Shown here one piece after another: positions 26,018-54,023 of a stretch of DNA of 64,000 bases (positions within the stretch are counted from its first letter, which is position 1; every line of letters starts with the position of its first letter). The translations under genes were made by a program, and so were the position numbers. Source of the DNA: Gemmatimonadota bacterium. GTDB lineage: Bacteria; Gemmatimonadota; Gemmatimonadetes; Palauibacterales; KS3-K002. Under the pieces are notes generated by a model that did no database searches, was not told the DNA's origin, and saw only the letters and a list, made by a program, of their open reading frames with translations. The stretch is from positions 9,408-73,407 of the forward strand of contig JBDHJS010000006.1 in NCBI GenBank assembly GCA_039586795.1, given 5' to 3'.

Positions 26018-26158
26018 AGCGCTACCGACAATCGTCGTTCGACGCCCGGCGAACGACGCAACGAACGTCGACCCCGAACCTCGTGCGTCGAACGTCGATC
26101 GCCGAATTGTCCTCGACCGCCGAGCGACCGCTGTCGGCTGTCGAAATAGTCCAATCCG

Positions 26159-27058: not shown

Positions 27059-28170
27059 TCGCGACGCTCACCGCTCTCGCCCTGCTGCTTCAGATGGCCG
27101 CTCCCCAGGCCGAGGTTGAAGTGCGGGCCGTGGCCGTCCCCGACAGCGTGAAGATCGGTGAAGAGTTCACGCTCAGCGTCTACGTCAGCGGTTTCGCCGA
27201 AGGGTCCGAAGTTGTCTTCCCGGAGCTTCCCGACACCGGGTCGGTGACCGCTCTCGGGCCGCCGCTGGTCGGGGGCGATCAGCCCACCGATACGCTGTTG
27301 GCGCTCTACGAGCTCGCCGCCTGGAAAGCCGGCGACCTTCAGGTCCCGGAGGCGGAGCTCGTCATCATCCGTGACGGAGCTGAGCTGACGATCCCGCTTC
27401 CCGAGGTGACCGTCCGTGTCGTGTCTGTTCTGCCGCTGGACGCCGACCCCGACACGTTGGCGTGGGAGCCGCCGGCCGATGTGGTGGGTGCCAACTGGAG
27501 CCTGCGCGACAAACTGATTGGTGCCGGGCTGGCACTCGCGGCATTGCTCATCGGCTTCGTCTATCTCCGGCGTCGGGTCGCCGCGTACCCCGTGACACTG
27601 CCTCCCGCCAAAACGCCAAGCGAACGCGCGCTGGATGCGCTGGAGCTCATCGCGCAGAGCGGGTTGATCGAGGCCGGCGAGTTGAAGGGTTTCTATTCGG
27701 CGCTGTCTTTCGTGCTCCGGCAGTTCCTCGCCGACACCGAGTACGAGTGGGGGCTCGACCTCACCACCAGCGAGGTGGTGAACGCGGTGGCCAGCGACGG
27801 TGTGACCGATCAGGCCGTTGCGTTGCTCGGCGTGCTCCTCATCGAGGCCGACACCGTGAAGTTTGCCCGCCGCCGACCGTCGCGGGGCAGAGCCGGCTGG
27901 GCGCTCGACGCGGCCCACGGTTGGGTGGCCGACTTCGAACGCGTGGACCGGTTGCCCGATTTCGTGCTCGAGCCCGACGCGGAGCTCGAAGAAGCGCTGA
28001 CGGTCAAGCGAGAGGCCGGCCTCAGCATCGACGATAGCGAAGCGCAGCTCGAGGAGATCGACGACATCTTCGCGGATGATGCGGTGGTCGAGGGCGAGGC
28101 CTCTGAGACGGCCAGCCATGCCGAGGATACGTTTGAGGATGACGAGCAAGGGAAGGGGGACGCGACATGA
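27055..28170 (+). CDS. Hypothetical membrane-anchored protein of the Bat-type operon
   Basis: Signal/anchor at the N-terminus, one mid TM segment, and an acidic C-terminus. Its position between DUF58 and BatA matches the conserved operon slot. Confidence 0.45.
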   Translation: MIATLTALALLLQMAAPQAEVEVRAVAVPDSVKIGEEFTLSVYVSGFAEGSEVVFPELPDTGSVTALGPPLVGGDQPTDTLLALYELAAWKAGDLQVPEAELVIIRDGAELTIPLPEVTVRVVSVLPLDADPDTLAWEPPADVVGANWSLRDKLIGAGLALAALLIGFVYLRRRVAAYPVTLPPAKTPSERALDALELIAQSGLIEAGELKGFYSALSFVLRQFLADTEYEWGLDLTTSEVVNAVASDGVTDQAVALLGVLLIEADTVKFARRRPSRGRAGWALDAAHGWVADFERVDRLPDFVLEPDAELEEALTVKREAGLSIDDSEAQLEEIDDIFADDAVVEGEASETASHAEDTFEDDEQGKGDAT

Positions 28171-29141
28171 TCTTCGAGTCGCCCTGGGCGTTCTCCCTGC
28201 TGGGCATCTTCCCCCTCTGGTGGCTTTGGCGCAAAGAACTCGGCGGTTTCCGCTACTCCCGCGGCGACGTCGCGGCACGTTCCGGTCGGCGGGTGAACCG
28301 CTGGATCGGCTCGTTGCCCGCCGTTCTGCGCGGACTTGCCGTGCTGACTCTCATCGTGGCGCTCGCTCGCCCGCAGACGGGTGTCGCCACGGAAGAGGTG
28401 GAAGCGGAGGGGATCGCTATCGCGCTGGTGGTCGACATATCGAGCTCGATGCTTGCCCTCGATATGCAGCCACTCGACCGACTCGAGGTCGCGAAGCGTA
28501 CGGTGCTCGAGTTCGTGATGAACCGGGAGTACGATCGAATCGCGCTCGTCGCGTTCGCCGGCGAGGCGATGACCCAGGTGCCGTTGACCATTGACTATCA
28601 GGTACTCGAGGAATCGATCAACAACCTCCAGGTCGATTTGCTGGAGGACGGTACCGCCATCGGTACCGCGTTGGCCACGGCGACGAATCGGCTACGTAGA
28701 TCGCCGGGCGCTTCCAAGGTCGTCATCCTGTTGACCGACGGTGAGAACAATCAGGGTGAGGTCGACCCGGTCACCGCGGCCCGCGCCGCGGCTGCCTATG
28801 ACATACGGACCTATACTGTGGGCGTCGGCAGCGAGGGCGTCGCGCCCGTACCGATCGGCCGCGGACCGTTGGGCACCGAGTACGCGAACATGCGCGTCCG
28901 ACTCGATGAAGATCTGCTGCGTCGCATCGCATCGATCACCGGCGCGCAGTACTTCCGCGCAACGAACGCAACGGCTCTCGAAGAGATCTATCGGCAGATC
29001 GACGAACTCGAGAAGACGCCCGTGAATGTCCGCCGCTATATCGAGTTCAGCGAGCATTTCCGACCGTTTGTCTTGCTCGCCTGCCTGTTCATCCTGGCGG
29101 AGTGGATGCTGCGCGTCCGCCGTTACCCGTTGTATGCGTGA
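28167..29141 (+). CDS. batA: vWA-domain protein BatA-like
   Basis: N-terminal TMs, then the vWA MIDAS region VVDISSSM ... LLTDGENN. Confidence 0.8.
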   Translation: MIFESPWAFSLLGIFPLWWLWRKELGGFRYSRGDVAARSGRRVNRWIGSLPAVLRGLAVLTLIVALARPQTGVATEEVEAEGIAIALVVDISSSMLALDMQPLDRLEVAKRTVLEFVMNREYDRIALVAFAGEAMTQVPLTIDYQVLEESINNLQVDLLEDGTAIGTALATATNRLRRSPGASKVVILLTDGENNQGEVDPVTAARAAAAYDIRTYTVGVGSEGVAPVPIGRGPLGTEYANMRVRLDEDLLRRIASITGAQYFRATNATALEEIYRQIDELEKTPVNVRRYIEFSEHFRPFVLLACLFILAEWMLRVRRYPLYA

Positions 29142-29172
29142 TGGTGCGATTGTCGTGTAATGGAGGTAGAGC

Positions 29173-30186
29173 GTGAGGATCGAATATCCGGTTTGGATCT
29201 GGCTGGGAATCCTGGCCGCTCTGGCGGGTATCGCCCTCGTCTACCTCTGGTACAAGCGACGACGCGCCGCACTCGATGCCCTGGGCAGTTCGGGAATGCT
29301 CGAACGCCTGACCCGCATCGATCTCTCGGGCACCCCATATCGGCGTGGCGCGCTGGTCGCCGCCGCCCTCGGTCTCATGGGCTTCTCCCTCGCCGGCCCG
29401 CAGTGGGGAGCGCAGGAGGTGGAGGAGCAGGCTCGCGCACTGAGCGTCGTCCTCGTGCTCGATATCTCCGAGTCGATGTGGGCGGAGGATGTAGCGCCGA
29501 ACCGCTTCGAACGAGAACGATTGCAGGGTCGCCGGCTCGTGACGGAGTTGGCCGGCCACCGGGTCGGCCTGGTAGCATTCGCCGGCTCCGCCTATCGCCT
29601 CTCACCACTGACCAGCGATCACGGGGCGCTGCAGCTCTATCTGGATGCCCTCGATCCATCGATGGCGGGCACGCCCGGCTCTTCGCTGGCGGCGGCAATT
29701 CGCCAGGCGGCTACCCTGCTGCGCGACGATACCGCCGAGGGGGGTGACCGGGCCATCGTGATTCTCAGTGACGGAGAATCGCATGACGAAGAGCGAGATG
29801 TTATCGATGCGGCTCGCGAAGCGGCGTCCGCGAACATCCGCGTCTACGCCATCGGCATCGGGAGCGATCGCGGCGAGCCGATCCCACGATACGATCGGGT
29901 CGGCGAGCGAATCGGCGGGTACAAGCGCGACGAGAACGGTGAAGTCGTGTTGACGCGCATGTCGTCCGAACCGCTGTCCGCGGCGACGCGGCGCGCTGGC
30001 GGATTCTGGGCTCGCTCCGATGAAGGTGGCGTGACCCGCGTGCTCGCCGCGCTGTCCGAGCTCGAGACGGGTCGGAGCGAAGTGACCCGCGGAGTGCGTT
30101 GGACGCCGCGCTTCCAGTGGTTCGTCGCCGGCGCGCTGCTCCTGCTGATCGCCGACTGGGGTTGGGCTTGGAGGCGCCAGCGATGA
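29173..30186 (+). CDS. batB: vWA-domain protein BatB-like
   Basis: VLDISESMWAED ... VILSDGESH is the vWA MIDAS region. C-terminal TM. Confidence 0.8.
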   Translation: MRIEYPVWIWLGILAALAGIALVYLWYKRRRAALDALGSSGMLERLTRIDLSGTPYRRGALVAAALGLMGFSLAGPQWGAQEVEEQARALSVVLVLDISESMWAEDVAPNRFERERLQGRRLVTELAGHRVGLVAFAGSAYRLSPLTSDHGALQLYLDALDPSMAGTPGSSLAAAIRQAATLLRDDTAEGGDRAIVILSDGESHDEERDVIDAAREAASANIRVYAIGIGSDRGEPIPRYDRVGERIGGYKRDENGEVVLTRMSSEPLSAATRRAGGFWARSDEGGVTRVLAALSELETGRSEVTRGVRWTPRFQWFVAGALLLLIADWGWAWRRQR

Positions 30187-30899
30187 GGACGATCGGGCTG
30201 GTCCTGCTGATGGGCGTCGCGCTGCTCGGTTTCCGACTCGCTACACAGGAAGAGTCGGGCAACCGGGCCTACCGCAACAGAAACTACCCGGGTGCGGTCG
30301 AGCGCTATCGCGAGGCTGTCGCTCGTGGCGGAGGCTCCGCACGGCTGCAGTACAACCTGGGGACGGCATTGCTGCAGATGTCCGAGCCGGAGGCGCGTGA
30401 GCGCTTGATGGAAGCATTGGAGGCGCAATCGCCTGAACTCCGCGCTCGCGCCTTCTATAACCTCGGCAATGCCCTCGCCCTCGGGTCGGGAGGAGCGCCC
30501 CCCAACGAAGGTGAGTTGCGTGCCGCCATCGATGCGTACCGCAGGTCGTTGCTGCTCGACCCGACTGGCGACAACGTGAGATGGAACCTCGAGCTGGCCA
30601 TGCGCCGCTTGGAGGATCGGCAGGGGAGCCCGCAGCAAGAAGGGCCGCCTCAGCAGTCTCCCAACGTACCTCCCCAGGGCCAGGGTGAAGGGCCGGAGCA
30701 ACCCAGGGGAGAAGGCCAGACCGCGCCTCAGCCGGGAGAGATGCAGCGACCTCGAGGGCAGCAGCTCGATTCTTCGGACGAGCCGTTCCCCCAGGAGCTT
30801 GCCGAGCAGATCTTGAGAGCGGTGGAAGAGCGTGAGCGGGCGCTGCAACGCGAGAAGCTGCGTCGTCAGCGCAGACGGACCAGGGGGCCCGACTGGTGA
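30183..30899 (+). CDS. batC: TPR-repeat protein BatC-like with a Gln/Pro/Gly-rich C-terminus
   Basis: The ATG at 30183 overlaps the batB stop. TPR-like YNLGTALL/FYNLGNAL repeats. The ORF-track start at 30099 lies in the batB overlap. Confidence 0.6.
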   Translation: MRTIGLVLLMGVALLGFRLATQEESGNRAYRNRNYPGAVERYREAVARGGGSARLQYNLGTALLQMSEPEARERLMEALEAQSPELRARAFYNLGNALALGSGGAPPNEGELRAAIDAYRRSLLLDPTGDNVRWNLELAMRRLEDRQGSPQQEGPPQQSPNVPPQGQGEGPEQPRGEGQTAPQPGEMQRPRGQQLDSSDEPFPQELAEQILRAVEERERALQREKLRRQRRRTRGPDW

Positions 30900-33325
30900 T
30901 CAAGAACCTCCTTCTGGTGCTTCTAGTGCCGACCCTGGGGCAGCAGGGCGAGGTGGAGGTGAGCGCCAGCCTCAACCGGCCCACAGCCAGCGTCGGCGAG
31001 ACCGTAGCGATGACCGTCACGCTGCGGGCGCCCGGTCTGCGCAGTTGGGAGATCGAGGATCCGACGTTCGAGTCACTGGAGCTGGTCTCATCGAACGACC
31101 GCAACACGTTCCGCTTCTCCGCCTCGCTGGGCGCGGTTCGCGAGTTGTCTCGCGAGTACACGCTCCGCGTTCTGCAGCCGGGTGAGATCACGATCCCGCC
31201 GGTACGCATCACCGTCGAAGGCGTGATCTACGAGACCGAGGCCTTGAGGCTGACGGCCGAGGCAGCCGGCACTTCGGCGGCGATCCCTAGGGGTGTTCGC
31301 CCGCGACCGGAAGAAGAGGTGGCGGTCCGGCTGTGGGCCGAGCCGGACACCGCCTTCGTTGGCCAGCAGGTCACCCTCACCGTGGGTGCGTTCTTCGATC
31401 CTCTGGTACGTAGTCGCTTGCAGCGTCAGCCCGAGTACCGGCCGCCGGACGTGCAGGGATTCTGGACGGCTGATTTGCCGGGCACTCCCCGGCCTGAACG
31501 GCGGGTGGTGAGTGGACGCGAGTACTTCATCCAGATCTACAGACGTGCGCTGTTTGCCCTCAGCCCGGGAACGATACGGATCCCGCCGGCCGCCGTGATC
31601 TACGAAGTGCGCCGCGGACTGATCTACGCGCCCGAGACGTTCCAGGTCGAGAGCGCCCCGGCATCGGTGGTCGTGTTGCCGCTTCCCGCGGAAGGTGCGC
31701 CCCCTGAATTCGCCGGCGCCGTCGGCCGCTACGAGACGGAGATCTGGTTCGACCGATCCGACCTGCGGGCCGGTGAAGCGGTGCACCTGTGGCTCGATGT
31801 TCAGGGCTCCGGCAACCTCAGCTCCCTCGCCCGGCCGACGATGCCCGAGGTGCCCGGGATGCGCGTTTACGACGGCGGTGAGGAAGCCGAGGTCCAGCTG
31901 CGGGGAACCGAGTTTGCTGGGCACAAGCGCTTCTCCTGGGTGCTGGTTCCCGAGCGACCCGGTCAATTCGTGCTGCCTGAATTGCGCTTGCCCTACTTCG
32001 ATCCCTGGGAGAGAAACTACGTTGTCGCCAGCACGGAGCCCGTGACGCTGAACGTCGAGCCGGCGCTCTCCGCCGGCGTCGCGCCGGCCACCGGAGGAAC
32101 CGCGGTTCGCTTCGTGAGGGCGGAGCCGGGAAGGCAGCCCGCCAACCTGCCGGACCGGCGTGGCTTCTGGATCGTCCAGATCGTTCCGCTCGCGATCCTC
32201 CTCGGTTCGCTGGCGTTCGGCCGCTACCGTGGCCGGATTCCGGCAGCGCGGCGCTCCCGGCCCCAGCGTCGTCAGCACGTGCTCCGCGAGCTGCGTCCGA
32301 TAGCCGAATCGGGCGACGCCGCCTTCTTCGGACAGCTGCGTGTGTCGATACTCGAGTGGTTGGCCACGCGGCTCCATCACCCTGGTTTGACCACGCAGGG
32401 GGCGGTGCAGGTTCAGCACGCGCTGGAGGACGCCGGCGTACCCACCGCACTGGCGCTCCAGGTCAATGACCTGCTCGAACGATGCGGCCGCCTGCGCTAC
32501 GCTCCGGATCCGCCCGGCGCCGAAATCGCTCTATCGACGCTGGCCGAGGCGGACAAGCTGATGTCGGCCATCGACCGCGAAGCGGTCTCGGAAAGACGTT
32601 TGCGAACGGCGCGTCCCGGAGGCTCGTCGGCGGCCGTAGGTCTGGCTCTGTTGTTGCTGCTGCCAGCACAATCGGCGGGGCAGAGATCGGACGAGCGACT
32701 GTTCCGCGATGGGGTGAGCGCCTATTCCCGGGCGTCGTACAGAGAGGCGGCGGAACTCTTCGAGCTCTACCTGGCTCGCCATCCTCAGGACCCGAACGCC
32801 CTCTTCAATTTGGGCGACGCCTACTACGAGTTGGGCGAGCGCGGTAAAGCGGTGGCCTATTGGGTGCGAACGCTACGCTTGCGTCCGCGCGACGAAGACG
32901 CTCGCTACAACCTCCGGATGATCGTCGGCGAAGACCCGGTCGTCGGAAGCACGCTCAACCCGTTGCCGCTGTCGCGCGACGAGATGGCGCTGCTCTTCTC
33001 GCTGTTCTGGATTGGCGGCTGCGTCGCGTTCATCCTCCGACGGCGCCGCCGAAAGGGGTTTCTCGCCTTCGCCGGCGGCACATCGATGCTGATCGCATTG
33101 CTCTGCGCCGCACTACTCTTCTATCCGCGCTCCGACTACGCGATCATCGCCAGCCACGAAGCCGTGCTGCGCGCCGGCCCCGTCCGCCAGAGCGAGATCC
33201 TCGGCTCGCCCACCCAGGGCACCGCCTATCGCGTGACCGAGCGCCGGGAGGAATGGCTGCGGGTTTCGAGGGGAGGGGACAGTGAGGGGTGGATTGAGGA
33301 GGGGCAGATTGAGTTGATTGACTAG
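30896..33325 (+). CDS. batD: BatD-like protein fused to a BatE-like TPR region, a TM segment and a C-terminal SH3b-like domain
   Basis: The N-terminal 560 aa are BatD-like. Then come TPR repeats (LFNLGDAYYELGERGKAVAYW), a TM segment (LFWIGGCVAFIL), and finally TQGTAYRVTERREEWLRVS...GWIEEGQIELID, which is SH3b-like. Confidence 0.65.
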   Translation: MIKNLLLVLLVPTLGQQGEVEVSASLNRPTASVGETVAMTVTLRAPGLRSWEIEDPTFESLELVSSNDRNTFRFSASLGAVRELSREYTLRVLQPGEITIPPVRITVEGVIYETEALRLTAEAAGTSAAIPRGVRPRPEEEVAVRLWAEPDTAFVGQQVTLTVGAFFDPLVRSRLQRQPEYRPPDVQGFWTADLPGTPRPERRVVSGREYFIQIYRRALFALSPGTIRIPPAAVIYEVRRGLIYAPETFQVESAPASVVVLPLPAEGAPPEFAGAVGRYETEIWFDRSDLRAGEAVHLWLDVQGSGNLSSLARPTMPEVPGMRVYDGGEEAEVQLRGTEFAGHKRFSWVLVPERPGQFVLPELRLPYFDPWERNYVVASTEPVTLNVEPALSAGVAPATGGTAVRFVRAEPGRQPANLPDRRGFWIVQIVPLAILLGSLAFGRYRGRIPAARRSRPQRRQHVLRELRPIAESGDAAFFGQLRVSILEWLATRLHHPGLTTQGAVQVQHALEDAGVPTALALQVNDLLERCGRLRYAPDPPGAEIALSTLAEADKLMSAIDREAVSERRLRTARPGGSSAAVGLALLLLLPAQSAGQRSDERLFRDGVSAYSRASYREAAELFELYLARHPQDPNALFNLGDAYYELGERGKAVAYWVRTLRLRPRDEDARYNLRMIVGEDPVVGSTLNPLPLSRDEMALLFSLFWIGGCVAFILRRRRRKGFLAFAGGTSMLIALLCAALLFYPRSDYAIIASHEAVLRAGPVRQSEILGSPTQGTAYRVTERREEWLRVSRGGDSEGWIEEGQIELID

Positions 33326-37359: not shown

Positions 37360-38706
37360 TCACTCGAACAGCTTCTCGACGGCCTCCACGGCGTCCGGTC
37401 GGGCCAGCACAGTCACCCGGTCGCCGCTCCACAGCGTCGCCTCGCCCAGCGGCACGAACACCTCTTCGCCCCGCGTGATCGAGCCGACCAGGCTGTCGTC
37501 CGGGAAGTCGATGTCTTCCAACGTTTTGCCGGCCACCCGGGAGCCGGCCTCGACCTCGAACTCGATCACCTCAGCGTCCACGCCGCGCAACGCCGCTACG
37601 CCCGTCACACTGCCGCGCCGCACATACCGCAATATCGTGTTCACCGCCGAGAGCCGCGGCGAGACGGCCGCATCAATGCCGACTTTGCCAACCAGCGGGA
37701 TGTACTCGATCTTGTTGATCAGCGACACGACCTTCCGCACCCCTTTATCCTTCGCCAGCAAGCTGGACAGCATGTTCGTGTCGTCGTTGCCCGTCAGCAC
37801 CACGAAACCGTCCAGGCCGCCGACACCCTCCATCTCCAGCAGCTCCATATCCGTGGCGTTCCCATGCAGAATCAGTGTGCGCTTCAGCTTCTCGGCCAGC
37901 TTCGCCGCCTTCGCCTTGTCCGCTTCGATGATCGTCACCTCGACGCCCTGCTCCTCGAGCATCTGCGCCAGGAAGACCGCCGTGCGGCTGCCGCCCGCGA
38001 TCATCACCCGTTCCAGCCGGAACTCCTGGTAGCCCGCCAGCTCCAGCACCGTCGACATCTGCTGTGGGTCGCCGATGATGTAGGCCTTGTCGCCTTCCTC
38101 GAAGTGGTTGTCCCCCCGGGGCACGATCGTCTCTTCGCCGCGCTGGATCGCCGCCGTCAGAAAGCGGCGGTCGTGGATCCCCGAAGCCACATCGGCCAGC
38201 GTCTTGCCAACGATCGGCGCGTCCGGCTGCACCCGCAGCCCCATCATCTGCACCCGCCCGCTGGCGAAGAAGGCGATCTCCATCGCCGCCTCCGACTGCA
38301 GCAGCTGGAACGTCTCCCGGGCGCACTCCAGTTCCGGGTTGATCATCACGTCCACACCCTGCTGCGCGCTCCGCAGGCGGCTCACGTCCAGGAAGTAGTC
38401 GGGGTTAGAGACCCGGGCGACCTTCACCTTGAGATCGTACGGCGCCGCCGACATACAGGCGACCAGGTTGACCTCGTCCGCATTGGTCACCGCCGCCATC
38501 AGATCGGCCTTCGCGATCCCCGCTTCGTCCAGCACCGCCAGGCTCGCGCCGTTCCCGACCACCGTCATGATGTCCAACTGCTCCTGCGCGTTTTGAGCCC
38601 GCGCCGGATCCTCGTCCACCAGCACGATGTCGTGTCGACCCTCTTCCGATAGATGCTCGGCAAGGTGAAAACCGACCGCACCCGCGCCGACGATCAGTAT
38701 TCGCAT
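37360..38706 (-). CDS. trkA: Trk system NAD-binding component TrkA (tandem RCK domains)
   Basis: MRILIVGAGAVGFHLA and a second Rossmann motif MIAGGSRTAVFLA. TrkA_C domains are present. Confidence 0.85.
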   Translation of the reverse strand: MRILIVGAGAVGFHLAEHLSEEGRHDIVLVDEDPARAQNAQEQLDIMTVVGNGASLAVLDEAGIAKADLMAAVTNADEVNLVACMSAAPYDLKVKVARVSNPDYFLDVSRLRSAQQGVDVMINPELECARETFQLLQSEAAMEIAFFASGRVQMMGLRVQPDAPIVGKTLADVASGIHDRRFLTAAIQRGEETIVPRGDNHFEEGDKAYIIGDPQQMSTVLELAGYQEFRLERVMIAGGSRTAVFLAQMLEEQGVEVTIIEADKAKAAKLAEKLKRTLILHGNATDMELLEMEGVGGLDGFVVLTGNDDTNMLSSLLAKDKGVRKVVSLINKIEYIPLVGKVGIDAAVSPRLSAVNTILRYVRRGSVTGVAALRGVDAEVIEFEVEAGSRVAGKTLEDIDFPDDSLVGSITRGEEVFVPLGEATLWSGDRVTVLARPDAVEAVEKLFE

Positions 38707-39157
38707 GGATTGGGCGTCCTCTGCAGACTGTTGGCCGGGCGATCTATCTCATCGCCCATCACACCTACGACCGTTCAATTTGTACTTCGACTTTCCTTCC
38801 CGCCACCGGCTCTCCGGCTCAGGCGGAACGGTGGCGGAAGCGAACGGGTGAGAACCGGCAAGCTTTTCGGAAACATCAGTCGTCTTTGGCGGAATACTGT
38901 CCAATTCGCCGATCCCCTAAGCCCTTAGGAAACATGCGTTTAGGCTGGGCCGCCGTCTAATGCCCGCTACTCCAGTCACAATGACCGAATAATCATTACT
39001 CATTTTGGCTACAATTTGCAGTGCTCTATCCGCTAATTCCTTAAAAAATAACAGCTTACGCGACATGTCCGATATCGGTATGGATACTGCTAAGGATATA
39101 GGGCGCGAGAAAGCCATCATCGCCTCTCGTACAGAACAAACCAAGAGATAATCGCTT

Positions 39158-39769
39158 ATGTACCGGAGAACACAAAACAGCAAGGGCTTCACCCTGATCG
39201 AAATGGTCATTGTGGTAATGATTTTCGGTCTCATGGCGGCGATCACGATTCCGCGTGCCATGCGTGTCAGCCCCCGGCAGCAGGTCCATGCGGCGGCCCG
39301 CCAGGTGATGCGTGACCTGGAAGCTGCTCGGATGAGGGCCATCTCCGCGAAGCGCGTGGTCCGCATGAGCTTCTACCAGACGAAGGACTTCTACGCGGCG
39401 TACATGGATGTGTCCAAAGCTCGTAAGGGCAACATCGAGGAAACGGAAGAAGAGGCGCGTGCCTCGAGGTTCCTCGTCCGGGCGTCTGAGAGCGGAATCC
39501 CGGGCGCGGATCTTCCCAACGGCGTCGTTTTCGGGGGCGGCAATGCAACGGCGGGTCCGCTGGGCGAAGTGGTCAGCGACCCGATCCTATTCGACAGCGA
39601 TCTGGTGGAGTTTGACGCACGCGGCATGGTTCGGCCGATCAACGGAGTGCGGTCCGGCGGCGTGATAGTGCTGGTACACAAAGATGATCCCGAGATCGTC
39701 GCCGCAGTGACGGTGACCGGGTCGGGAGCGTTTCGTTCGTGGAACTGGCAGGACGGCAAGTGGAGGTAA
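39158..39769 (+). CDS. Type IV pilus / T2SS minor pseudopilin (GspH/FimT-like)
   Basis: Class III leader MYRRTQNSKG|FTLIEMVIVVMIFGLMAA, with a prepilin peptidase site and Glu+5. Confidence 0.7.
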   Translation: MYRRTQNSKGFTLIEMVIVVMIFGLMAAITIPRAMRVSPRQQVHAAARQVMRDLEAARMRAISAKRVVRMSFYQTKDFYAAYMDVSKARKGNIEETEEEARASRFLVRASESGIPGADLPNGVVFGGGNATAGPLGEVVSDPILFDSDLVEFDARGMVRPINGVRSGGVIVLVHKDDPEIVAAVTVTGSGAFRSWNWQDGKWR

Positions 39770-40182
39770 TGAAAGTGTTCCGGAAGATGAAATCGGAGGC
39801 CGGTATCGGCCTGATGAGCACGATGGTCGCGATGGTCCTTTTGGGGCTGGCGGTCACGGCGCTTTCCAGCTCCGGCATGATGGTCCTGGCGGTTCACACC
39901 GACTCTGCGGTACGCGCGACGGCGACGGCGTTGGCCGCGTCCTATCTCGAGGAGGTCAAGGCCCGTGATCCTCAGACCCTCGCCTCGGAGTCGGCGGCCA
40001 AGATCAACGAGGCCGGCATCGATGAGTCGACGGGCCCTTACATCAGGTCCCTCGAAGTAGCCGACGAGGACGGGCTCGCCTACACGAAGCGAGTCACCGT
40101 ACTGGTTCAGTATCCCCGCGGCAAAGGCCGCATGGGTCGAGTGGAGCTGGTCACGGTGATCTACGTGGGAGAAGAGCGATGA
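39769..40182 (+). CDS. PilV-like minor pilin
   Basis: MKVFRKMKSEAG|IGLMSTMVAMVLLGLAVTAL is a prepilin-like hydrophobic N-terminus, atypical in lacking Glu+5. Start at the internal Met at 39769. Confidence 0.5.
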   Translation: MKVFRKMKSEAGIGLMSTMVAMVLLGLAVTALSSSGMMVLAVHTDSAVRATATALAASYLEEVKARDPQTLASESAAKINEAGIDESTGPYIRSLEVADEDGLAYTKRVTVLVQYPRGKGRMGRVELVTVIYVGEER

Positions 40183-41159
40183 ACTCGCAGCGCTTGCTTC
40201 GCCTGGCGCTCCCCCGCGACAACAGGCTGTCCTCTGAAGGCTTCACCCTGGTCGAGGCGCTCATCGGCATGATGGTAGGCATCTTAGTCCTCGGCGCCAC
40301 CGTCGGGTTCTTGCTGACCCAGATGCGGACCCTCGGCGCTGGCGACGTGCGTGAGGACCTACACCGCAACGCGCGGTATATTGGCGTCTCGCTGCGCCAC
40401 GATGTGCAGGCTGCGGGCATCGAAATGAAGACGACCCACGACTTCGGGACGATGGCGGCGTACCCCGGCACCTACGGAGACACGCTGATCGTTCTTCACG
40501 TGCCCTACGTTCCCTCACCGGCGCCGCCCCACGACATCGATCCGCCGGCCGGGACCGACAATCCGCTCCCTGCGGGCGGTACCTGCGGCACGAACTGCAT
40601 CGACGTCACGAAAGAGTCGGGTGTGCAGCTCGAGCTGGTCCAGGGTGACCTTGCTCGCATGCAGATCGGTAGTACGCGACGGTTCATTCTGATTGAAAAG
40701 ATCGTCGCGACCAACGATACGTCGGTTGCCCTCACCTTCACGGCGCACGATACGATCCTCCGCAAGCCCGCCGGTCTCACCGGCGGCCTGCGACTCGACC
40801 GCTTCAGCACTTTTGTTCAGAAGGTCCAGCCGACCATCTACTGGGTGGACGACCAGAAGCGCCTCTGGCGCGCCGTGCGCCTCAACTCCAGCAGCAAGCC
40901 GGTGGGCCACATCCTGGCCTGGGGCGTCGAGTCTTTCGAGATCCGCCTGATCTTCGAGGACGGCGACGAGCTGGAGCAAGCCAACCCGTTCGATAGCGAC
41001 AACTCGAACGACTATGACGACGTCGTCGCCGTTCGGATCACGGCCACGCTGGCCGCCGACCGCACGGACCAGCGGGTGAACGGAGGGCAGCTGCTCAAGA
41101 AGTCGTACGAATGGGTAATCTCGCCCCGAAACCTGCGGTATGAGAGAAACAGGTTCTAA
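40179..41159 (+). CDS. PilW-like minor pilin
   Basis: ...LSSEG|FTLVEALIGMMVGILVLGA is a class III prepilin N-terminus. Length 326 aa. Confidence 0.65.
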   Translation: MNSQRLLRLALPRDNRLSSEGFTLVEALIGMMVGILVLGATVGFLLTQMRTLGAGDVREDLHRNARYIGVSLRHDVQAAGIEMKTTHDFGTMAAYPGTYGDTLIVLHVPYVPSPAPPHDIDPPAGTDNPLPAGGTCGTNCIDVTKESGVQLELVQGDLARMQIGSTRRFILIEKIVATNDTSVALTFTAHDTILRKPAGLTGGLRLDRFSTFVQKVQPTIYWVDDQKRLWRAVRLNSSSKPVGHILAWGVESFEIRLIFEDGDELEQANPFDSDNSNDYDDVVAVRITATLAADRTDQRVNGGQLLKKSYEWVISPRNLRYERNRF

Positions 41160-41195
41160 CGAACGAACTCGGCCCCAACCGAACTGGATTGAGAT

Positions 41196-43391
41196 ATGCG
41201 CATCAAGAGCTTCACAGACGAACGCGGCCTGGCGCTGATCGCCACGTTGCTGCTTCTGGCCCTGGTCGCCGTGCTGACGACGACGGCGCTCACCGGCGCC
41301 ATGAACGCGCTCCGTACGTCGGGCAGCGACTACCAGGACACGCGGGTCTTCTACGCCGCGGAAGCGGGCGCCGAGGCCACACTGGCCCAGCTGAAGGTCG
41401 CGCTGCTCGATGGGTACCTGTCGCCCGACGAGCTGACGAACATGAAGCCGCCAGATCTGAACGCCGTCGACTTCGACAGCTTCGCGGTGAACAAGGTTGG
41501 CGATGAGATCGTCGAGACGATCACCGACGGACCGTTCGCCGGGCTCTACGCGCTGACGCAGAACGTCGACATCTATTCCCGGGCCGCGAACGCGGCGGGC
41601 GATGTCTCAGCGGTCATTCTGCGCGCCAAGGCGCAGGCGATCCCCATCTTCCAGTTCGGCGTCTTCTTCGAGCAGGACCTCGAGGCTACCAACGGGCCGC
41701 CCATGGAGTTCGTGGGGCGCGTCCATTCGAACGGCAACATCTACCTGAGCTCGGACAACGCCTGGTACCGCGACCTGGTCACCACGCCCAACAAGATCAT
41801 CCACGACCGCAAGGACTTCCACAGCGTGAAGAACGGGGTGTACGTTAACGACTCCGGCGGCACCGAGGTCCCGTTGGACTTTGACAGCCGGACGCACGCG
41901 GACCCCGAAGCGTTCAAGGCGAAGAGCTGCGACAGGTTCGACTGCCGGGTGCAGACCGACGCCTTCGGGGTCGACTCGCTCTCTCTGCCGCTGCCCGATG
42001 GCGTGCCGCCCTACGAGTTGCTCATGCCACGCGAGAACAGCGATGTGGACGCGGAGCGCCAGGTGAAGTTCGCCTGGAACGCCGACATGTACATCGAGGT
42101 CGACCTGGGCAACATCAGCACCAAGGAGGACGTTTGCATGGGTGGCGGCCCCAAAAAGGACCCGGACGAGGTCGGCGGCGACCTGCAGGTCACCGCTCTG
42201 CAGAAGGTGGAACCGGGGGCGACCGTCCAGTTCAAGATCCTCAACGTGCCCTGCGGGGAGATCGATGACGTCGATGTCCAAATTACGGCCGACGGCGTCA
42301 CATTCTTTTCGGTCATTGACCTTCAGAACTGTATCTTCCAGGCCACCATCCCCATCGACGCCAACGACGTCGTCTTGACCGCCATTGGCGACGATGACGG
42401 TATCGGGACGGTGATGAACGGGAGCGCCTTCTGGTACGGGCTTCAGTACGTCAACGATCTCGCGCCCTGGCCGGCGACGACGATCACCCGCAGTTCGGGT
42501 GGTGACGTTCCGGCTGCTAAAGACATGTGCAACATGTTCTGGTGGGATTGGGCGAGCTTCTACGACGGGCGCGAAAAGGAGCTCAAAGATGTGCTCAACA
42601 TCGACATCGCCCAGATAGTCGCCTGGGCCGGCGGCTCGTCCTCCCGGAGCAGTGAGGTCATTTACGTCGAGATCAAGGTTCCCAATACGATCAATGGGTA
42701 CTCGCAAGAGACGCTGGACCTGATATTGGACGGGACACTCGATCCGGCGGTGCGCGTGCTCAACGGCCAGACGCTGCCGAATCCGATGTCGCTGGCCAGC
42801 GAATGGCCGCTCTACGTGAAGGGCGACTATAACCGCTTCGCGAAGAAGCCCGCCGCCCTGGCCGGCGACGGCATCACTATCCTGTCTAATGCTTGGGACG
42901 ATGCGAACAACAAGCCGCCCGGCGGTACCTACACCTCCTGTACGAACCAGACCGCTCCAAACTCTCCGTGTGCACACTACTTGACCTGGCAAGCCACCTG
43001 GACGAAGGGGCCGAGCCTCGAGACCTGGGTCAACGCGGCGATCCTCGCCGGGCACACGGCGACGCCGTGTGACCATGAAGATTCTTCCTGCATCGCCGAC
43101 GGCTCGAGCGCCTACTATACGGACTGGTACGGCGGCGGACTGGAGAACTTCCCACGCTTCCTCGAGCGCTGGTACAACACTAGCGGAGTTCGCCAGACGC
43201 TCCATTTCGTGGGCGCTCTGATCAGCCCGTTCACCAGCCAGAAGACGACCGGCACTTGGAACGGCAGCTACTACTCGCCGCCCCAGCGTGACTGGCAATT
43301 CGATACAGATTTCCAAGACCCGAGGCTCTTGCCGCCGGGCACGCCCAACGTGGGGTACGTCCTGCGAACCGCCATGAGAGAGGCATACTGA
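41196..43391 (+). CDS. Large PilX-N-terminal-domain protein (731 aa), candidate pilus tip/adhesin component
   Basis: RGLALIATLLLLALVAVLTTTALTGAMNALRTSGSDYQDTRVFYAAEAGAE is a PilX_N-type N-terminus. The N-terminal 300 aa and C-terminal 60 aa are near-identical to the downstream paralog. Confidence 0.6.
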   Translation: MRIKSFTDERGLALIATLLLLALVAVLTTTALTGAMNALRTSGSDYQDTRVFYAAEAGAEATLAQLKVALLDGYLSPDELTNMKPPDLNAVDFDSFAVNKVGDEIVETITDGPFAGLYALTQNVDIYSRAANAAGDVSAVILRAKAQAIPIFQFGVFFEQDLEATNGPPMEFVGRVHSNGNIYLSSDNAWYRDLVTTPNKIIHDRKDFHSVKNGVYVNDSGGTEVPLDFDSRTHADPEAFKAKSCDRFDCRVQTDAFGVDSLSLPLPDGVPPYELLMPRENSDVDAERQVKFAWNADMYIEVDLGNISTKEDVCMGGGPKKDPDEVGGDLQVTALQKVEPGATVQFKILNVPCGEIDDVDVQITADGVTFFSVIDLQNCIFQATIPIDANDVVLTAIGDDDGIGTVMNGSAFWYGLQYVNDLAPWPATTITRSSGGDVPAAKDMCNMFWWDWASFYDGREKELKDVLNIDIAQIVAWAGGSSSRSSEVIYVEIKVPNTINGYSQETLDLILDGTLDPAVRVLNGQTLPNPMSLASEWPLYVKGDYNRFAKKPAALAGDGITILSNAWDDANNKPPGGTYTSCTNQTAPNSPCAHYLTWQATWTKGPSLETWVNAAILAGHTATPCDHEDSSCIADGSSAYYTDWYGGGLENFPRFLERWYNTSGVRQTLHFVGALISPFTSQKTTGTWNGSYYSPPQRDWQFDTDFQDPRLLPPGTPNVGYVLRTAMREAY

Positions 43392-43424
43392 GCTCGTCAT
43401 AGACCTTAGAACGACATTCAACCC

Positions 43425-43465
43425 GCCCTTGGATCGCCAACCCGGCGATCCAAGGGCCTTTTTTT
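43425..43465 (+). terminator. Rho-independent terminator between the two large pilin-like paralogs
   Basis: GCCCTTGGATCGCC-AACCCG-GCGATCCAAGGGC followed by TTTTTTT. Confidence 0.7.
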
Positions 43466-43526
43466 CGGGGGCATCCAGGCTTCCCAGGGACCAGCAACAG
43501 TCCCGTCCGACAACCCGGAGATTTGT

Positions 43527-45782
43527 GTGATGGATTTATTGCCCAGTGTCACAGGGCTAAGGCTTTCGGCCAGGAAGCTCTGCCAGCGAACGGACGATCG
43601 CAGCGGACTGGCCCTTATTGCCACTTTGCTGCTGCTTGCGATGGTCGCAGTGCTCACGACCACGGCGCTCACCGGCGCGATGAACGCGCTGCGCACGGCC
43701 GGCAGCGACTATCAGGACACTCGGATCTTCTACGCGGCGGAAGCCGGCGCCGAGGGTACCTTGGCCCAGCTGAAGATCGCACTCGCCGACGGCTACCTGT
43801 CGCCCGACGAGCTGACGAACATGAAGCCGCCTCAATTCGACGGCATTGACTTCGACAGCTTTACGGTGAACAAGATCGGCGATGAGACGGTAGAGACGAT
43901 CACCGACGGTCCCTACGCGGGGCTGTTCGCCCTCACGCAGAACGTCGACATCTACTCTCATGCGTCAAACGCCGCCGGCGATATCTCGGCGGTCATCCTG
44001 CGGGCCAAGGCGCAGGCGATCCCGATCTTTCAGTTCGGCGTCTTCTTCGAGGGCGATTTGGAAGGCACGAACGGCCCACCGCTCCATATGGCGGGCCGTG
44101 TCCATTCGAATGGCAACATCTATCTCAGCTCCAGCAACGCGTGGTACCACGAGATGGTCACCACCCCCAACAAGGTGTTTCACGACCGAAAGGACCAGCA
44201 CTACGTGCGCAACGGCGTCTACATCGACGACTCCGGCGGCAACGCGGTACGACTCAACTTCGACAGCCGTTCGCATCCCGATCCCGAGGCCTTCAAGTCG
44301 GAAAGCTGTTCGAGATTCGACTGTCGCCTGCAAACCGATGCGTTCGACGTCGATTCTCTGAGCTTGCCCCTGCCGGACGGCGTCTTGCCCTACGAGCTGG
44401 TGCGGCCGCGTGAGGATAGTGACACCGACGCGGAACGCAACGTGAAGTTCGCCTGGAACGCCGACTTCTACCTCACCATAGACCTGGTGAACCTATCGAC
44501 GGAGGACGTCGAGTGTGGCAACGTGTCAGTGGTGCCGGATCCGGATGTCATCAACTCGGGCAACATAACGCTGACCGGCTCCGGGGCGCTTTGCCCGGGC
44601 GAACTCGTCACGTTCGTGGCCAGCCATCCCGACCTCGTCTGCGCGGATTTCGACTTTCGGGCGCTGCGCACTGTCGAGGCCGGCGGGAAGATAAATTCCG
44701 AGCCCATGGACGGCTGTCAATTCAAAGTGAATCTTCCGGACGGGGCGCCGACAGACATCAGGATCACGATCGAACTCAAGATGGCTGATTATCCGCAACT
44801 GAGTCAGGACGAACTGGCCGATGTCTTGTGGTTGCAGGACACGATCGACGCCAACTGCACGGGTGGCGCCACCCTGAGCAACGACCCGTGGCCGAACATG
44901 GTCGTTACGCGGGCGGGCGGGGAGTCGCCCGACAAGGCTGATCTGTGCTCGATCTTCCAGTGGGAGTGGTCGGACTTTTTCGATGGCCGCGAGAACGAGC
45001 TAAAGGACGTCCTGAACGTCGATCTCGCCGCGCTGAACGCATGGGTCACTGGCAACGCGCAACGTACGATCGAGATCCTCTACGTCGATTTCGTCGTGCC
45101 CGGCGATATCAAAAACTACAAACCGCTGACCAAGGACCTGTTGCCGGACGCGACGGTCGATCCGGCGCTGCGGCTCATCAACGGAAGCTCGCTCCCGAAC
45201 CGCATGACGATCGCCAACGAATGGCCGCTCTACATCCGGGGCAACCTGAACAGCGTCAACAAACAGCCGGCGGCCGTAACGGGGGATGGCATCACGATCC
45301 AGTCGAATGCTTGGCTAGATGCGAATAACCGTCCGCCCGAAAGCGTATTCACCGCCTGTAAAGGCATCGTTAGCGCCGGCAACGCTTGCCCCAAATACAC
45401 GGATTGGATGCCAACCTGGGCCATGCGAACCGCTTCGGAGACGACTGTGAACGCGGCCTTCCTCGGCGGTCACTGGGCGACGCCATGCGATCACGAGGAC
45501 GCGGGATGCGGCGGCGGCTACTACGACTTCTACGGCGGCGGCTTTCACAACTTCCCGCGCTTTGTCGAAGACTGGCTGCGTACAGTCAAGTTCCACTACA
45601 CAGGCGCCTTGATCAGTCCGTTCACTAGTCAGAAGACGACGGGCACCTGGAACCTGACCTACTACGAGCCGCCGGATCGCAACTGGGCGTTCGATACCGA
45701 CTTCCGCGACCCGAGGCTCCTGCCGCCCGGTACACCGAACGTCGGTTACGTGCTCCGTACCGCAATGCGCGAGGCCTATTAG
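43527..45782 (+). CDS. Large PilX-N-terminal-domain protein, tandem paralog (751 aa; start uncertain)
   Basis: SGLALIATLLLLAMVAVLTTTALTGAMNALRTAGSDYQD... and the identical C-terminal ...GTPNVGYVLRTAMREAY. The central region (about residues 320-520) is diverged from the upstream paralog. Confidence 0.6.
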   Translation: MMDLLPSVTGLRLSARKLCQRTDDRSGLALIATLLLLAMVAVLTTTALTGAMNALRTAGSDYQDTRIFYAAEAGAEGTLAQLKIALADGYLSPDELTNMKPPQFDGIDFDSFTVNKIGDETVETITDGPYAGLFALTQNVDIYSHASNAAGDISAVILRAKAQAIPIFQFGVFFEGDLEGTNGPPLHMAGRVHSNGNIYLSSSNAWYHEMVTTPNKVFHDRKDQHYVRNGVYIDDSGGNAVRLNFDSRSHPDPEAFKSESCSRFDCRLQTDAFDVDSLSLPLPDGVLPYELVRPREDSDTDAERNVKFAWNADFYLTIDLVNLSTEDVECGNVSVVPDPDVINSGNITLTGSGALCPGELVTFVASHPDLVCADFDFRALRTVEAGGKINSEPMDGCQFKVNLPDGAPTDIRITIELKMADYPQLSQDELADVLWLQDTIDANCTGGATLSNDPWPNMVVTRAGGESPDKADLCSIFQWEWSDFFDGRENELKDVLNVDLAALNAWVTGNAQRTIEILYVDFVVPGDIKNYKPLTKDLLPDATVDPALRLINGSSLPNRMTIANEWPLYIRGNLNSVNKQPAAVTGDGITIQSNAWLDANNRPPESVFTACKGIVSAGNACPKYTDWMPTWAMRTASETTVNAAFLGGHWATPCDHEDAGCGGGYYDFYGGGFHNFPRFVEDWLRTVKFHYTGALISPFTSQKTTGTWNLTYYEPPDRNWAFDTDFRDPRLLPPGTPNVGYVLRTAMREAY

Positions 45783-45944
45783 TCCGTTTTCCCGAAGTAT
45801 CGGCTGGACGCACGGGGCCGTCGCAAGACGGCCCCATTTGCATCTGGCTTGCTGACCCGTCGTCGACCGAACGGACACTTCCCTGGAGAGAGCGCCGTGC
45901 CTATTCTTGGGTCGAACACTGTCCGGACGGCCTGCCGTCCGCCG

Positions 45945-46018
45945 GGGCCCGTAGCTCAGTTGGTCAGAGCAGCCGACTCATAATCGGTAGGTCGCAGGTT
46001 CGAGTCCTGCCGGGCCCA
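45945..46018 (+). tRNA. tRNA with CAT anticodon, most similar to tRNA-Ile2 (lysidine) / elongator Met
   Basis: GGGCCCG acceptor and anticodon loop CTCATAA. The body resembles E. coli tRNA-Ile2 (…GGCGACTCATAATCGC…GGTCGCTGGTTCAAGTCC…). Confidence 0.7.
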
Positions 46019-46040
46019 CTCGCCTTCACCGGAGCGCTCG

Positions 46041-46400
46041 ATGCCCGTCAACGTTCGCCGCTTCCTCTACAGCATGCTCGCCACGCTCGGCGTCATCATG
46101 ATGGTGCCCCTCACCATCAACGTGGCCCGCTTACAATCGGCGCTCGAGCAGTTCGACCCGCTGGCAACGGACGGGCTGGGGCTCGATCCCGAGGTCTCCG
46201 CCTGGCTCGGTGGTCTCTGGCTGCTCTTCCTGGCCGGCACTTGTGTCTCCGTCGGGTTCCTCTACCTGGCCCTCTCAACCGGCCATCTCAAGGGCTGGCG
46301 CCCCGTCGGGAACGGGGAACCCCGCTGCGCGCGCTGCGGCAGCCCGTTGGCCATGGGGCTCGAGCGCTGCGGCACCTGCGACCAGCGGCTGTCCTGGTGA
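46041..46400 (+). CDS. Hypothetical small membrane protein with a C-terminal CxxC-x9-CxxC zinc ribbon
   Basis: Two TM segments, then RCARCGSPLAMGLERCGTCDQRLSW. Confidence 0.4.
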   Translation: MPVNVRRFLYSMLATLGVIMMVPLTINVARLQSALEQFDPLATDGLGLDPEVSAWLGGLWLLFLAGTCVSVGFLYLALSTGHLKGWRPVGNGEPRCARCGSPLAMGLERCGTCDQRLSW

Positions 46401-52895: not shown

Positions 52896-54023
52896 ATGAA
52901 GATTGGCATCGCCTGTTACCCGACCTACGGCGGAAGCGGCGCCGTCGCCACCGAGCTGGGCATGCGCCTGGCCCAGCGCGGGCACGAAGTGCATTTCGTG
53001 TCCTACGCGCACCCTTTCCGCCTGCCACGCTTCCTGCGCAACACGTATTTCCACGAGATCGAGGTGTCTCGCTACCCGCTGTTCGAGTACCCGCCGTACT
53101 CGCTTGCGGCGACCGTGGCCATGCACGAGGTGGCGACCCAGCGGCACCTGGATCTCTTCCACGTGCACTATGCCGTGCCTCACGCTACGTCGGCGCTGCT
53201 CGCCAAGCAGATGCTCGAGCCGCCCGACGATCTCAAGATCGTCACGACGCTGCACGGCACCGACATCACGCTGGTCGGACAGGATCCATCGTACCGGTCG
53301 ATCGTGAGGTATTCCATCGAGGCGTCCGACGGGCTCACCGCCGTTTCCGAATTCCTGAAACGCGAGACCATCGCCGCGTTCGGTTGCTCGAGCTGCGAGG
53401 TCCGCGTGATTCCTAACTTCGTCGACACAGAGCATTTCCGACGCGATACCAACCGACGGAATCGAAACGCCCTGGCCGAGCCGGACGAGAAGATCATCAT
53501 GCACATCTCGAATTTCCGGCCGGTGAAGCGCGTTGACGATGTGGTTCGGGTCGCCGCCCGTGTGATGGAGAAGGTCCCGGCCCGGCTCATCTTGGTCGGC
53601 GATGGCCCCGATCGACACATGGCCGAAGAGCGGGCGCGCAACCTCGGTATCGGCGCCCGAGTCGTCTTCCTCGGCAAGCAGGAGCAGGTGAACGAGTTGT
53701 TGTCCTGTGCCGACCTCTTCATCCTGCCCAGCGAGTCGGAATCGTTCGGGTTGTCGGCCCTGGAAGCGATGGCCGCTGAGGTCCCCGTCGTTGGCACCCG
53801 TAACGGCGGCCTGGAAGAGGTCGTCGAGGACGGGGTCGCCGGACGTCTGTTCCCGGTGGGCGCCGTGGACGCGATGGCCGACGCCGCCACCGAGATCCTC
53901 AGCGACGACCAGCGAGGCCGCGAGATGGGGCAGGCCGGCCGCGCCCTCGCCATGGAGAAGTACTCCGTCGAGCGCATCCTCTCCATGTACGAGTCCTACT
54001 ACATCGAGACACTGAAGAAGTGA
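52896..54023 (+). CDS. bshA: GT4-family glycosyltransferase, BshA-like (N-acetyl-alpha-D-glucosaminyl L-malate synthase)
   Basis: MKIGIACYPTYGGSGAVATELGMRLAQRGHEVHFVS is characteristic of BshA. The C-terminal GT-B EX7E region is present. Confidence 0.6.
   Translation: MKIGIACYPTYGGSGAVATELGMRLAQRGHEVHFVSYAHPFRLPRFLRNTYFHEIEVSRYPLFEYPPYSLAATVAMHEVATQRHLDLFHVHYAVPHATSALLAKQMLEPPDDLKIVTTLHGTDITLVGQDPSYRSIVRYSIEASDGLTAVSEFLKRETIAAFGCSSCEVRVIPNFVDTEHFRRDTNRRNRNALAEPDEKIIMHISNFRPVKRVDDVVRVAARVMEKVPARLILVGDGPDRHMAEERARNLGIGARVVFLGKQEQVNELLSCADLFILPSESESFGLSALEAMAAEVPVVGTRNGGLEEVVEDGVAGRLFPVGAVDAMADAATEILSDDQRGREMGQAGRALAMEKYSVERILSMYESYYIETLKK

Follow-up and report, generated by a model that had tools for sequence, protein, structure and literature searches.

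Two tandem HpsA-like PilX proteins as possible alternative pilus caps in a minor-pilin operon of a Gemmatimonadota bacterium

Gemmatimonadota are abundant in soils and sediments, and their cell surface is almost unstudied. In a 64,000-nucleotide stretch (64 kb) of contig JBDHJS010000006.1 from a bacterium of this phylum, here called the window and always meant at its full length, five open reading frames (ORFs) occupy positions 39158–45782. An earlier note, made from the sequence alone, had described them as GspH/FimT-, PilV- and PilW-like genes followed by two large paralogs, which we name H, V, W, X1 and X2. The locus raises the question of what one small set of minor pilins would do with two large proteins of PilX type. 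We consider it likely that these genes form a stand-alone core minor-pilin operon, for priming and for the tip, most probably of a type IVa pilus, and that X1 and X2 would be alternative caps belonging to an HpsA-like family.

The five ORFs all lie on the + strand with a high third-position GC content (0.76–0.86), and follow each other in the order H, V, W, X1, X2, with H-V-W-X contiguous through overlaps or short spacers. Together with their N-terminal motifs, they support the description of the locus as a minor-pilin operon. H (39158–39769, 203 aa) is a GspH/FimT/FimU-like minor pilin with the N-terminus MYRRTQNSKG/FTLIEM (the slash follows the last leader residue) and Glu at +5. It matches the Pfam family N_methyl with 31.3 bits (cut-off 21.2) and the Pfam GspH domain with 19.3 bits, slightly below the cut-off of 21, and 11 of 18 H orthologs match the GspH domain at E ≤ 0.01 (best E 1.7e-7). 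Its matches to NCBIfam GspH, ComGD and Verru_Chthon cassette D are confined to the N-terminus; the link to the Verru_Chthon cassette is a lead only, given by H with protein D (E 1e-10 over the generic N-terminus) and by X with protein A (E 0.18).

V (39769–40182, 137 aa), a PilV/GspI-like small minor pilin, has its most likely start at ATG 39769; this codon overlaps the H stop codon and gives the length found in its orthologs. Its assignment is based on size, position and an N-terminus, G/F(T/S)LISV, that is conserved in 20 orthologs; V itself reads SEAG/IGLMS. Ser at +5 of the predicted mature protein (G/F-T-L-I-S) is at least 90% conserved in these orthologs. W (40179–41159, 326 aa) is PilW/GspJ-like, with the motif SSEG/FTLVEA and Glu at +5, and the prepilin motif GFTL(I/V)E is thus present in both H and W. 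Domain matches are weak for V (TIGR02523 PilV E 0.027, N_methyl E 0.16) and for W (PilW PF16074 E 0.11, HpsC E 0.0036), and a weak HpsB match (E 0.08) is found among the small pilins; of 19 W orthologs, 17 match N_methyl and two match PilW (best E 2.6e-4). When the V profile was compared with PDB sequences, pilin N-termini alone were matched (E ≥ 0.29), with nothing specific. Across the window, a prepilin-type N-terminal motif occurs only in H, W, X1 and X2; the motif scan itself returned H, W and X1, X2 having escaped the loose pattern, and V, with Ser at +5, fits neither pattern.

X1 (41196–43391, 731 aa, leader MRIKSFTDERG/LALIATLLL) and X2 (43530–45782, 750 aa, leader ...DDRSG/LALIATLLL) are predicted to be large capping pilins of PilX/GspK type. 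The start of X2 is most likely ATG 43530, with GGAG 9 nt upstream, rather than GTG 43527 (751 aa), and a database entry of 750 aa (P0024) is ~100% identical to it. The two proteins are indeed paralogs, with 58% identity over 721 aa in BLASTP (E = 0), and both have the PilX_N-type N-terminus that had been proposed, with PF14341 scores (32.2 bits in X1, 28.1 bits in X2) above the gathering threshold of 25.5. Their class III leaders end in Gly and are followed by Ala at +5 (ERG/LALIA and RSG/LALIA) in place of Glu5, as expected of a capping subunit, and Gly11, Ala13 and Leu14 are each at least 90% conserved among 112 homologs. PilX_N is the only match of X1 and X2 in a Pfam scan at E ≤ 1, with no PilY1/PilC propeller and no vWA domain; an identity as PilY1, a vWA protein or a beta-propeller was rejected on the absence of any such Pfam or NCBIfam match at this threshold, and the hidden Markov model searches that the earlier note had proposed thus bear out its view that these proteins are not of PilY1 type. 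GspK proper was also rejected, since only the N-terminal 60 aa match NCBIfam GspK NF037980 (22.7 bits against a cut-off of 130; X1 E 6e-5) and there is no Pfam T2SSK domain. The HpsA model (NF038301) gives a local match, of X1 aa 137–188 to HpsA 275–326 (E 3e-10; X2 E 2e-8), and homology between X1 and HpsA extends to two stretches, but the scores of 38.4 bits for X1 and 32.4 bits for X2 do not reach the equivalog cut-off of 400 bits.

AlphaFold2 models, built with the alignment of 112 sequences, reached a mean predicted local distance difference test (pLDDT) score of 89.4 and a predicted template modelling (pTM) score of 0.84 for X1, and 91.2 and 0.86 for X2. The X1 model consists of a helix (10–72), three long strands (92–150), a beta-rich body and a last long strand (718–730); the body has many short strands and few helices, then an all-beta module (325–431), then further short strands, and the order of secondary structures is the same in X2. 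The ten Cys residues of X1 occur as conserved pairs, in keeping with an extracytoplasmic location. At X1 aa ~619–632 (window 43000–43100) and at the equivalent place in X2 there is a conserved G-H-x-x-T-P-C-D-H-E-x(3-5)-C motif, in which, among the 112 homologs, G619, T623, C625 and D626 do not vary and H620, P624 and C632 reach at least 90% conservation. It is followed by ENFPRFLE-x-W, with N651, R654, E657 and W659 invariant. These two segments could be a candidate metal-, ligand- or partner-binding site.

Such an architecture is already known, through ComZ (2019) and the cyanobacterial PilX/HpsA sets (2026), and the operon is no new kind of system; the suggestion that a large PilX_N protein is an unprecedented kind does not stand (PMC6561018; bioRxiv 10.64898/2026.02.12.705559). 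In the cyanobacterial PilX/HpsA proteins the pilin fold holds a large beta-rich insert, cyanobacteria are known to have tandem or multiple PilX paralogs, and the bulky cyanobacterial PilX has been proposed to fill the plug role of PilY1 (bioRxiv 10.64898/2026.02.12.705559). PilX_EPS/HpsA, as in Nostoc punctiforme HpsA, resembles X in its PilX-type N-terminus and in the large beta-rich domain that interrupts the pilin fold, in the FimT-, PilV- and PilW-like genes of its locus, in lacking PilY1, in having several paralogs or sets per genome, and in direct local homology at two conserved segments. X differs in having half the length (731 vs ~1500 aa) and 38 rather than 400 bits, a central expansion that is a single immunoglobulin (Ig)-like domain or none, no hps glycosyltransferase genes nearby, and in being from Gemmatimonadota. 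ComZ of Thermus thermophilus is a tip-associated competence pilin with a large beta-rich insert in the pilin fold, argued to fit at the filament tip only (PMC6561018). It shares with X a GspK-like pilin module, a beta-rich domain apparently placed before the last strand and small minor pilins alongside, whereas X has no detectable sequence similarity to it, is larger and has the extra Ig-like insert. PilX of Pseudomonas aeruginosa and GspK are like X in PF14341, in a GspK-like N-terminus lacking Glu5 and in coming last in a GspH/I/J/K-like gene set, but are only ~200–330 aa long, and the helical insert of GspK is at another place in the sheet. PilY1/PilC is similarly large, with a gene that ends the minor-pilin operon and with a proposed tip location, plugging and adhesion, but it is not itself a pilin: it carries a Sec signal peptide, its N-domain is vWA-like and its C-terminus forms a beta-propeller (PF05567). 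Finally, PilB/PilC of Streptococcus sanguinis and CofB of enterotoxigenic Escherichia coli also use a pilin module to display an extra functional module on the filament; in these cases the extra module is appended C-terminally rather than placed inside the pilin sheet, its fold is a different one (vWA, lectin or beta-repeat), and the proteins are not homologous to X.

We infer the assembly order, tip location, adhesion, differential expression and machinery used from the GspHIJK/FimU-PilVWX model and from ComZ. By analogy with GspH-I-J-K and FimU-PilV-PilW-PilX, W and V would pair first, X would cap V/W at the distal end, where the lack of Glu5 means that it could not be followed by another subunit, and H would join the fibre of major pilins to this tip complex. 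The two large paralogs would serve as alternative caps, each with a class III leader and hydrophobic helix, a pilin beta-sheet and a beta-rich body placed before the conserved last strand, with an optional Ig-like beta-sandwich grafted into the body. The N-terminal 300 aa and the C-terminal ~45 aa would form a frame that folds the pilin module and docks on the shared V/W, and the Ig-like insert and the loops of the C-terminal half would be the exposed parts. As the exposed parts have diverged between the paralogs, filaments would differ at the tip, and in adhesive or ligand specificity, according to whether X1 or X2 primed them. In a system lacking PilY1, X would also plug the tip, and X2 would be expressed at a lower or separately regulated level, behind a terminator.

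Several observations weigh against this assignment to a type IV pilus tip. The 64 kb window has no gene for a major pilin, a PilB/T ATPase, PilC, PilMNOP, a secretin or PilD, and no PilB/T-type Walker motif was found in 1.37 Mb of related loci (the flanks of 85 loci), indicating that the module is generally unlinked to its machinery. The pilin fold with a beta-rich body inserted before the last strand is read from the order of secondary structures in the predicted models. Foldseek against the PDB gave weak matches for the X body, to the pectate lyase Pel3 (E 4.6e-5, but TM 0.19) and to a GH66 endodextranase, with ComZ and GspK outside the top 50 for both models, and a search of all PDB chains with phmmer and the family profile matched only pilin N-termini (E ≥ 0.13). 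The identities of V and W, with their weak domain matches, come mainly from position and size. PilV and GspI normally have Glu5, and Ser5 in V would be unusual.

The alternative that survives best is that the genes encode a secretion-type pseudopilus, either of a type II secretion system (T2SS) or of an Hps-like polysaccharide export system, in which H-V-W-X would tip a short periplasmic piston and X would contact the protein or polysaccharide cargo. H does match GspH and the X N-terminus GspK, the best (weak) Foldseek match of the body is to a pectate lyase-type beta-helix, a polysaccharide-binding fold, and the sole named relative of X is HpsA, which was originally described from a locus for polysaccharide secretion that includes three pseudopilins (bioRxiv 10.64898/2026.02.12.705559). 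However, the operon is adjoined by no gspC-G, gspL or gspM gene and by no hps glycosyltransferase cluster, GspK's own Pfam domains were not detected in X1 or X2, and proteins of 730–750 aa with an exposed Ig-like domain are large for the tip of a periplasmic piston. Moreover, HpsA-type sets have themselves been reinterpreted as priming complexes of true motility pili (bioRxiv 10.64898/2026.02.12.705559), and a pseudopilus seems unlikely to us.

The divergence between X1 and X2 is uneven along their length. In X1 numbering, the two proteins share 80–81% of residues over aa 10–300 (78% of nucleotides, ratio of nonsynonymous to synonymous divergence, dN/dS, of 0.14), 20–24% over aa 301–~430 (44% of nucleotides in aa 301–425, dN/dS 0.56), ~55% over aa ~430–690 (62% of nucleotides in aa 426–690, dN/dS 0.31) and ~85% (35/41) over the last ~41 aa, 691–731 (76% of nucleotides, dN/dS 0.07). 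This domain-wise analysis, which had been proposed in the earlier note, places the insert highest and the C end lowest in dN/dS, and it agrees with the shared C-terminus described there: both proteins end in the identical GTPNVGYVLRTAMREAY, and the final 18 aa are the same. By contrast, the N-terminal ~300 aa, which had been called near-identical, prove not to be so, given the identities above and a synonymous divergence (dS) of ~0.9. The divergent centre is the most variable region, as claimed, but its extent was overestimated, since strong divergence covers ~125–140 aa (X1 ~301–430) and not ~200.

The overall dN/dS of X2 versus X1 is 0.27, showing that X2 is under purifying selection. The dS is ~0.5–0.85 in the first 160 codons and >1.2 elsewhere, with 40-codon windows ranging from 0.5 to >2 and saturated in places, and this high synonymous divergence throughout indicates that the duplication is old. 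A recent duplication or ongoing gene conversion was rejected, as no window exceeds 85% nucleotide identity and the dS spans 0.5 to >2; the longest DNA repeat is 300 nt at 84%. Invertible or cassette-type switching was likewise rejected, as 38700–46100 holds no inverted repeats and the window encodes neither a recombinase nor a reverse transcriptase.

The variable core corresponds in X1 to a predicted Ig-like beta-sandwich insert at aa ~312–432 (42129–42491, + strand), with AlphaFold2 strands at 325–431, and in X2 to one at aa ~328–462 in the 751-aa numbering (44508–44912, + strand), located by hhalign and Foldseek. For the X1 insert, Foldseek found FN3, ML-domain and DUF3244 Ig-like folds over 90–120 columns, with probability ≤1.0 and target TM ≤0.59, and for the X2 insert FN3/PKD folds (7y8i with probability 0.98, 1b4r with TM 0.66). 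The earlier note had allowed that the centres might align well if compared properly, leaving no real variable region. Profiles of the X1-type and X2-type cores do align in hhalign over their full length (probability 99.2%, E 2.5e-19) with conserved Cys residues, yet with 24% identity, in what is still the most variable part of the protein. At the level of these profiles, the two cores are one homologous Ig-like domain. The nearest relatives of the X2 insert in other genomes are P0006 (52%) and P0084 (43%).

The same pattern is found in the family at large. Close X homologs are from Gemmatimonadota or Gemmatimonadales wherever named, and nearly all are annotated as hypothetical protein. Conservation in the family is high at aa 141–200, 641–660 and 681–731 and low at 301–440, and ~60% of members, with lengths of 565–650 aa, have gaps at columns 321–420. 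The family profile is thus shaped like the X1/X2 comparison, so that the conserved frame and variable core are a property of the whole family, with the core as an optional insert, rather than something special to this pair. A profile search of 1.84 billion representatives gave 4220 clusters (counted at 50% identity) at E ≤ 1e-3, of which 1113 have E ≤ 1e-30; named matches include a cyanobacterial protein from Acaryochloris (E 3.5e-64), an Acidobacteriota protein and a 'Tfp pilus assembly protein PilX'. Ten of ten distant members match HpsA at ~285–325 and/or ~1280–1400 (E 1e-10 to 1e-22), which indicates that HpsA is built on this frame around a far larger centre.

In a pattern scan with one genome per species, at least 470 stretches among the first 600 listed were confirmed as matches, and the 80 best loci were kept; nearly all are labelled Gemmatimonadota, with L021, L048 and L073 carrying another or no phylum label. 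By local tblastn, the four-gene module is present in ~80 loci in two circular permutations, H-V-W-X in the clade of the window and X-H-V-W in most Gemmatimonadales. The survey of copy number that the earlier note had suggested gave one, two or six X genes per locus. Most loci have one; two tandem X per single H-V-W are found in the window, in L085 (H-V-W-X-X) and in L082 (X-X-H-V-W), and six tandem X followed by H-V in L029. At a syntenic locus (proline racemase ... MFS transporter), L083 has one X with an X1-type core, L084 one X with an X2-like core, and L085 two X. A literature search on type IV pili in Gemmatimonadetes gave nothing usable.

L029, an uncultured Gemmatimonadaceae contig, has the most extreme X copy number among the loci examined, with six copies of 575–613 aa (L029:1664-13747), N-domains 51–76% identical and a single H-V. 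In L016, L017, L019 and L020 (e.g. L016:3706-11887) it is the whole module that is duplicated, as two complete H-V-W-X modules in tandem; each X there resembles orthologs from other genomes more than it does the X beside it, which points to old module duplications. Two further loci have two extra small prepilin genes (GFTLxE, 122–183 aa) beside the module (L023:13900-14830 and L078:5669-6620), which could be candidates for major or accessory pilins.

An AT-rich non-coding leader of ~230 nt, presumed to be the promoter region, lies upstream of the operon (38930–39157, + strand, read directly) in a genome of 61–66% GC. It contains TGGCTACAATTTGCA, which resembles a sigma-54 −24/−12 element with a spacer one base short, and no sigma-70-like site was found in it by consensus scan. 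Between X1 and X2, at 43425–43465 (+ strand), the terminator announced in the earlier note is canonical and strong by both scan and folding: a hairpin (43425–43457) with a 14-bp stem, 10 of its pairs GC, and a 5-nt loop is followed by CTTTTTTT with a T7 tract, and has a dG of −32.6 kcal/mol (z = −5.4 vs shuffles). A strong terminator after X1 suggests that less X2 may be made or that its production may be regulated separately. A consensus scan of the X1–X2 spacer found no sigma-70 promoter for X2, which is weak evidence in this phylum, and the terminator is not conserved in L085, the other H-V-W-X-X locus, where the X–X spacer is 52 nt without a hairpin. On the 3' side of X2, the operon may end at a GC-rich hairpin (45814–45835, + strand) whose T tract is weak; the segment 45805–45850 folds with a dG of −26.4 kcal/mol (z = −4.5), although the terminator scan did not flag it. 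A tRNA-Met(CAT) gene follows at 45945–46019, 160 nt downstream of X2, and Rfam gave three tRNAs only, with no structured RNA in the leader or spacer.

These signals could also be taken to mean that X2 is a redundant duplicate, or one drifting to loss, whose core has diverged through relaxed constraint only. The strong terminator immediately upstream, the spacer with no promoter-like site by consensus scan, the mostly single X of the nearest relatives at other loci (L083, L084, L027) and the dN/dS of the insert, the highest of any region, would all agree with this. Nevertheless, X2 is an intact ORF of 750 aa with a good GGAG ribosome-binding site, and the combination of near-saturated synonymous divergence with a dN/dS of 0.27 overall and 0.07–0.14 in the frame indicates long-lasting purifying selection on it. 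All family-invariant residues and the Cys pairs are kept, the AlphaFold2 confidence equals that of X1, the X2-type insert has relatives elsewhere (P0006, P0007 and P0084), and tandem X pairs recur independently in L085 and L082, all of which makes redundancy improbable. Least probable of all is that X is an enzyme displayed at the tip, for instance a lyase or hydrolase of glycans, with its active site among the invariant polar residues of the body (E163, H177, N179, D230, D283, K291, D297, R459, N546, D558, C625, D626, R654, E657 and R698), an idea that draws on the weak 3Di likeness to pectate lyase and GH66 endodextranase and on the link of HpsA to polysaccharide (bioRxiv 10.64898/2026.02.12.705559), but that meets TM-scores of 0.1–0.2, the absence of a catalytic domain in Pfam or NCBIfam, and the fact that the most conserved segments are those shared with HpsA and adjoining the pilin module, where a constraint from folding or docking explains them equally well.

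With X1 and X2 read as alternative caps, tandem X genes that share one H-V-W set might, more tentatively, provide a choice of exchangeable pilus tips. Co-evolution, or an old gene conversion affecting the 5' part, would maintain the fit between the docking frame and V/W. Diversification, or swapping between lineages, would be open to the Ig-like insert and surface loops, and terminator read-through or separate promoters would select the tip that is mounted. The N-domain of X2 is nearest to that of X1 (80–81%, vs ≤75% to any other genome), whereas its insert and C-half are nearer to proteins of other genomes (P0006, P0007) than to X1. L085 shows a weaker tendency (N identity of 0.87 within the pair vs 0.85–0.86 for the best outside), and where the whole module is duplicated and each X comes with an H-V-W of its own, the N-domains of the paired X are less alike than those of orthologs elsewhere. 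L082 is a counter-example in a tiny sample, its N-domain being the more diverged part. As far as the sequences go, the likeness of the N-domains and the lower dS in the first 160 codons would fit either co-evolution with partners used in common or an ancient gene conversion in the 5' part.

The rest of the window consists of housekeeping genes. Upstream are, in order, gltX, a lexA-like gene, tadA, pyrB/pyrC-like genes, scpAB, a MoxR-DUF58-vWA-BatD operon, an AIR-synthase-family gene and merR, with trkH and then trkA on the opposite strand between merR and the operon. Downstream are secD, secF, tatD, mutL, miaA, a GT4 glycosyltransferase gene, uppP, nadC, coaX, groES/EL and Ser/Thr kinases; the glycosyltransferase gene (52896–54023), the nearest one to the operon, is 7 kb away, in another gene group past secDF, tatD, mutL and miaA. 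The row of MoxR AAA+, DUF58, unknown, vWA, vWA, TPR and BatD-TPR-SH3 genes at 24926–33325 (+ strand) is a Bat 'aerotolerance'-type operon, and appears unrelated to the pilin genes. The operon region (38–46 kb) has a GC content of 0.61, vs 0.64–0.66 in the flanks, and there is no sign of a mobile island, integrase genes and direct repeats both being absent. Between tRNA-Met and secD, an ORF of 119 aa (46041–46400) is predicted to have two membrane helices and ends in a zinc-ribbon-like CxxC...CxxC segment, with no Pfam match.

For Gemmatimonadota, these results describe a compact four-gene minor-pilin module that is nearly universal in the phylum, with a cap that belongs to the HpsA-like family of cyanobacterial PilX_EPS/HpsA and that is like ComZ in architecture only. 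This family is large, with 4220 clusters in at least three phyla, almost all annotated as hypothetical. What is new is the Gemmatimonadota lineage and its place in this large unannotated family, the optional Ig-like insert and the copy-number series. Loci with or without the insert, and with one, two or six copies of X, provide natural variants for tests of tip specificity, and the operon lends support to the idea, now emerging, that in bacteria other than Proteobacteria a bulky PilX fills the role of PilY1 at the pilus tip.

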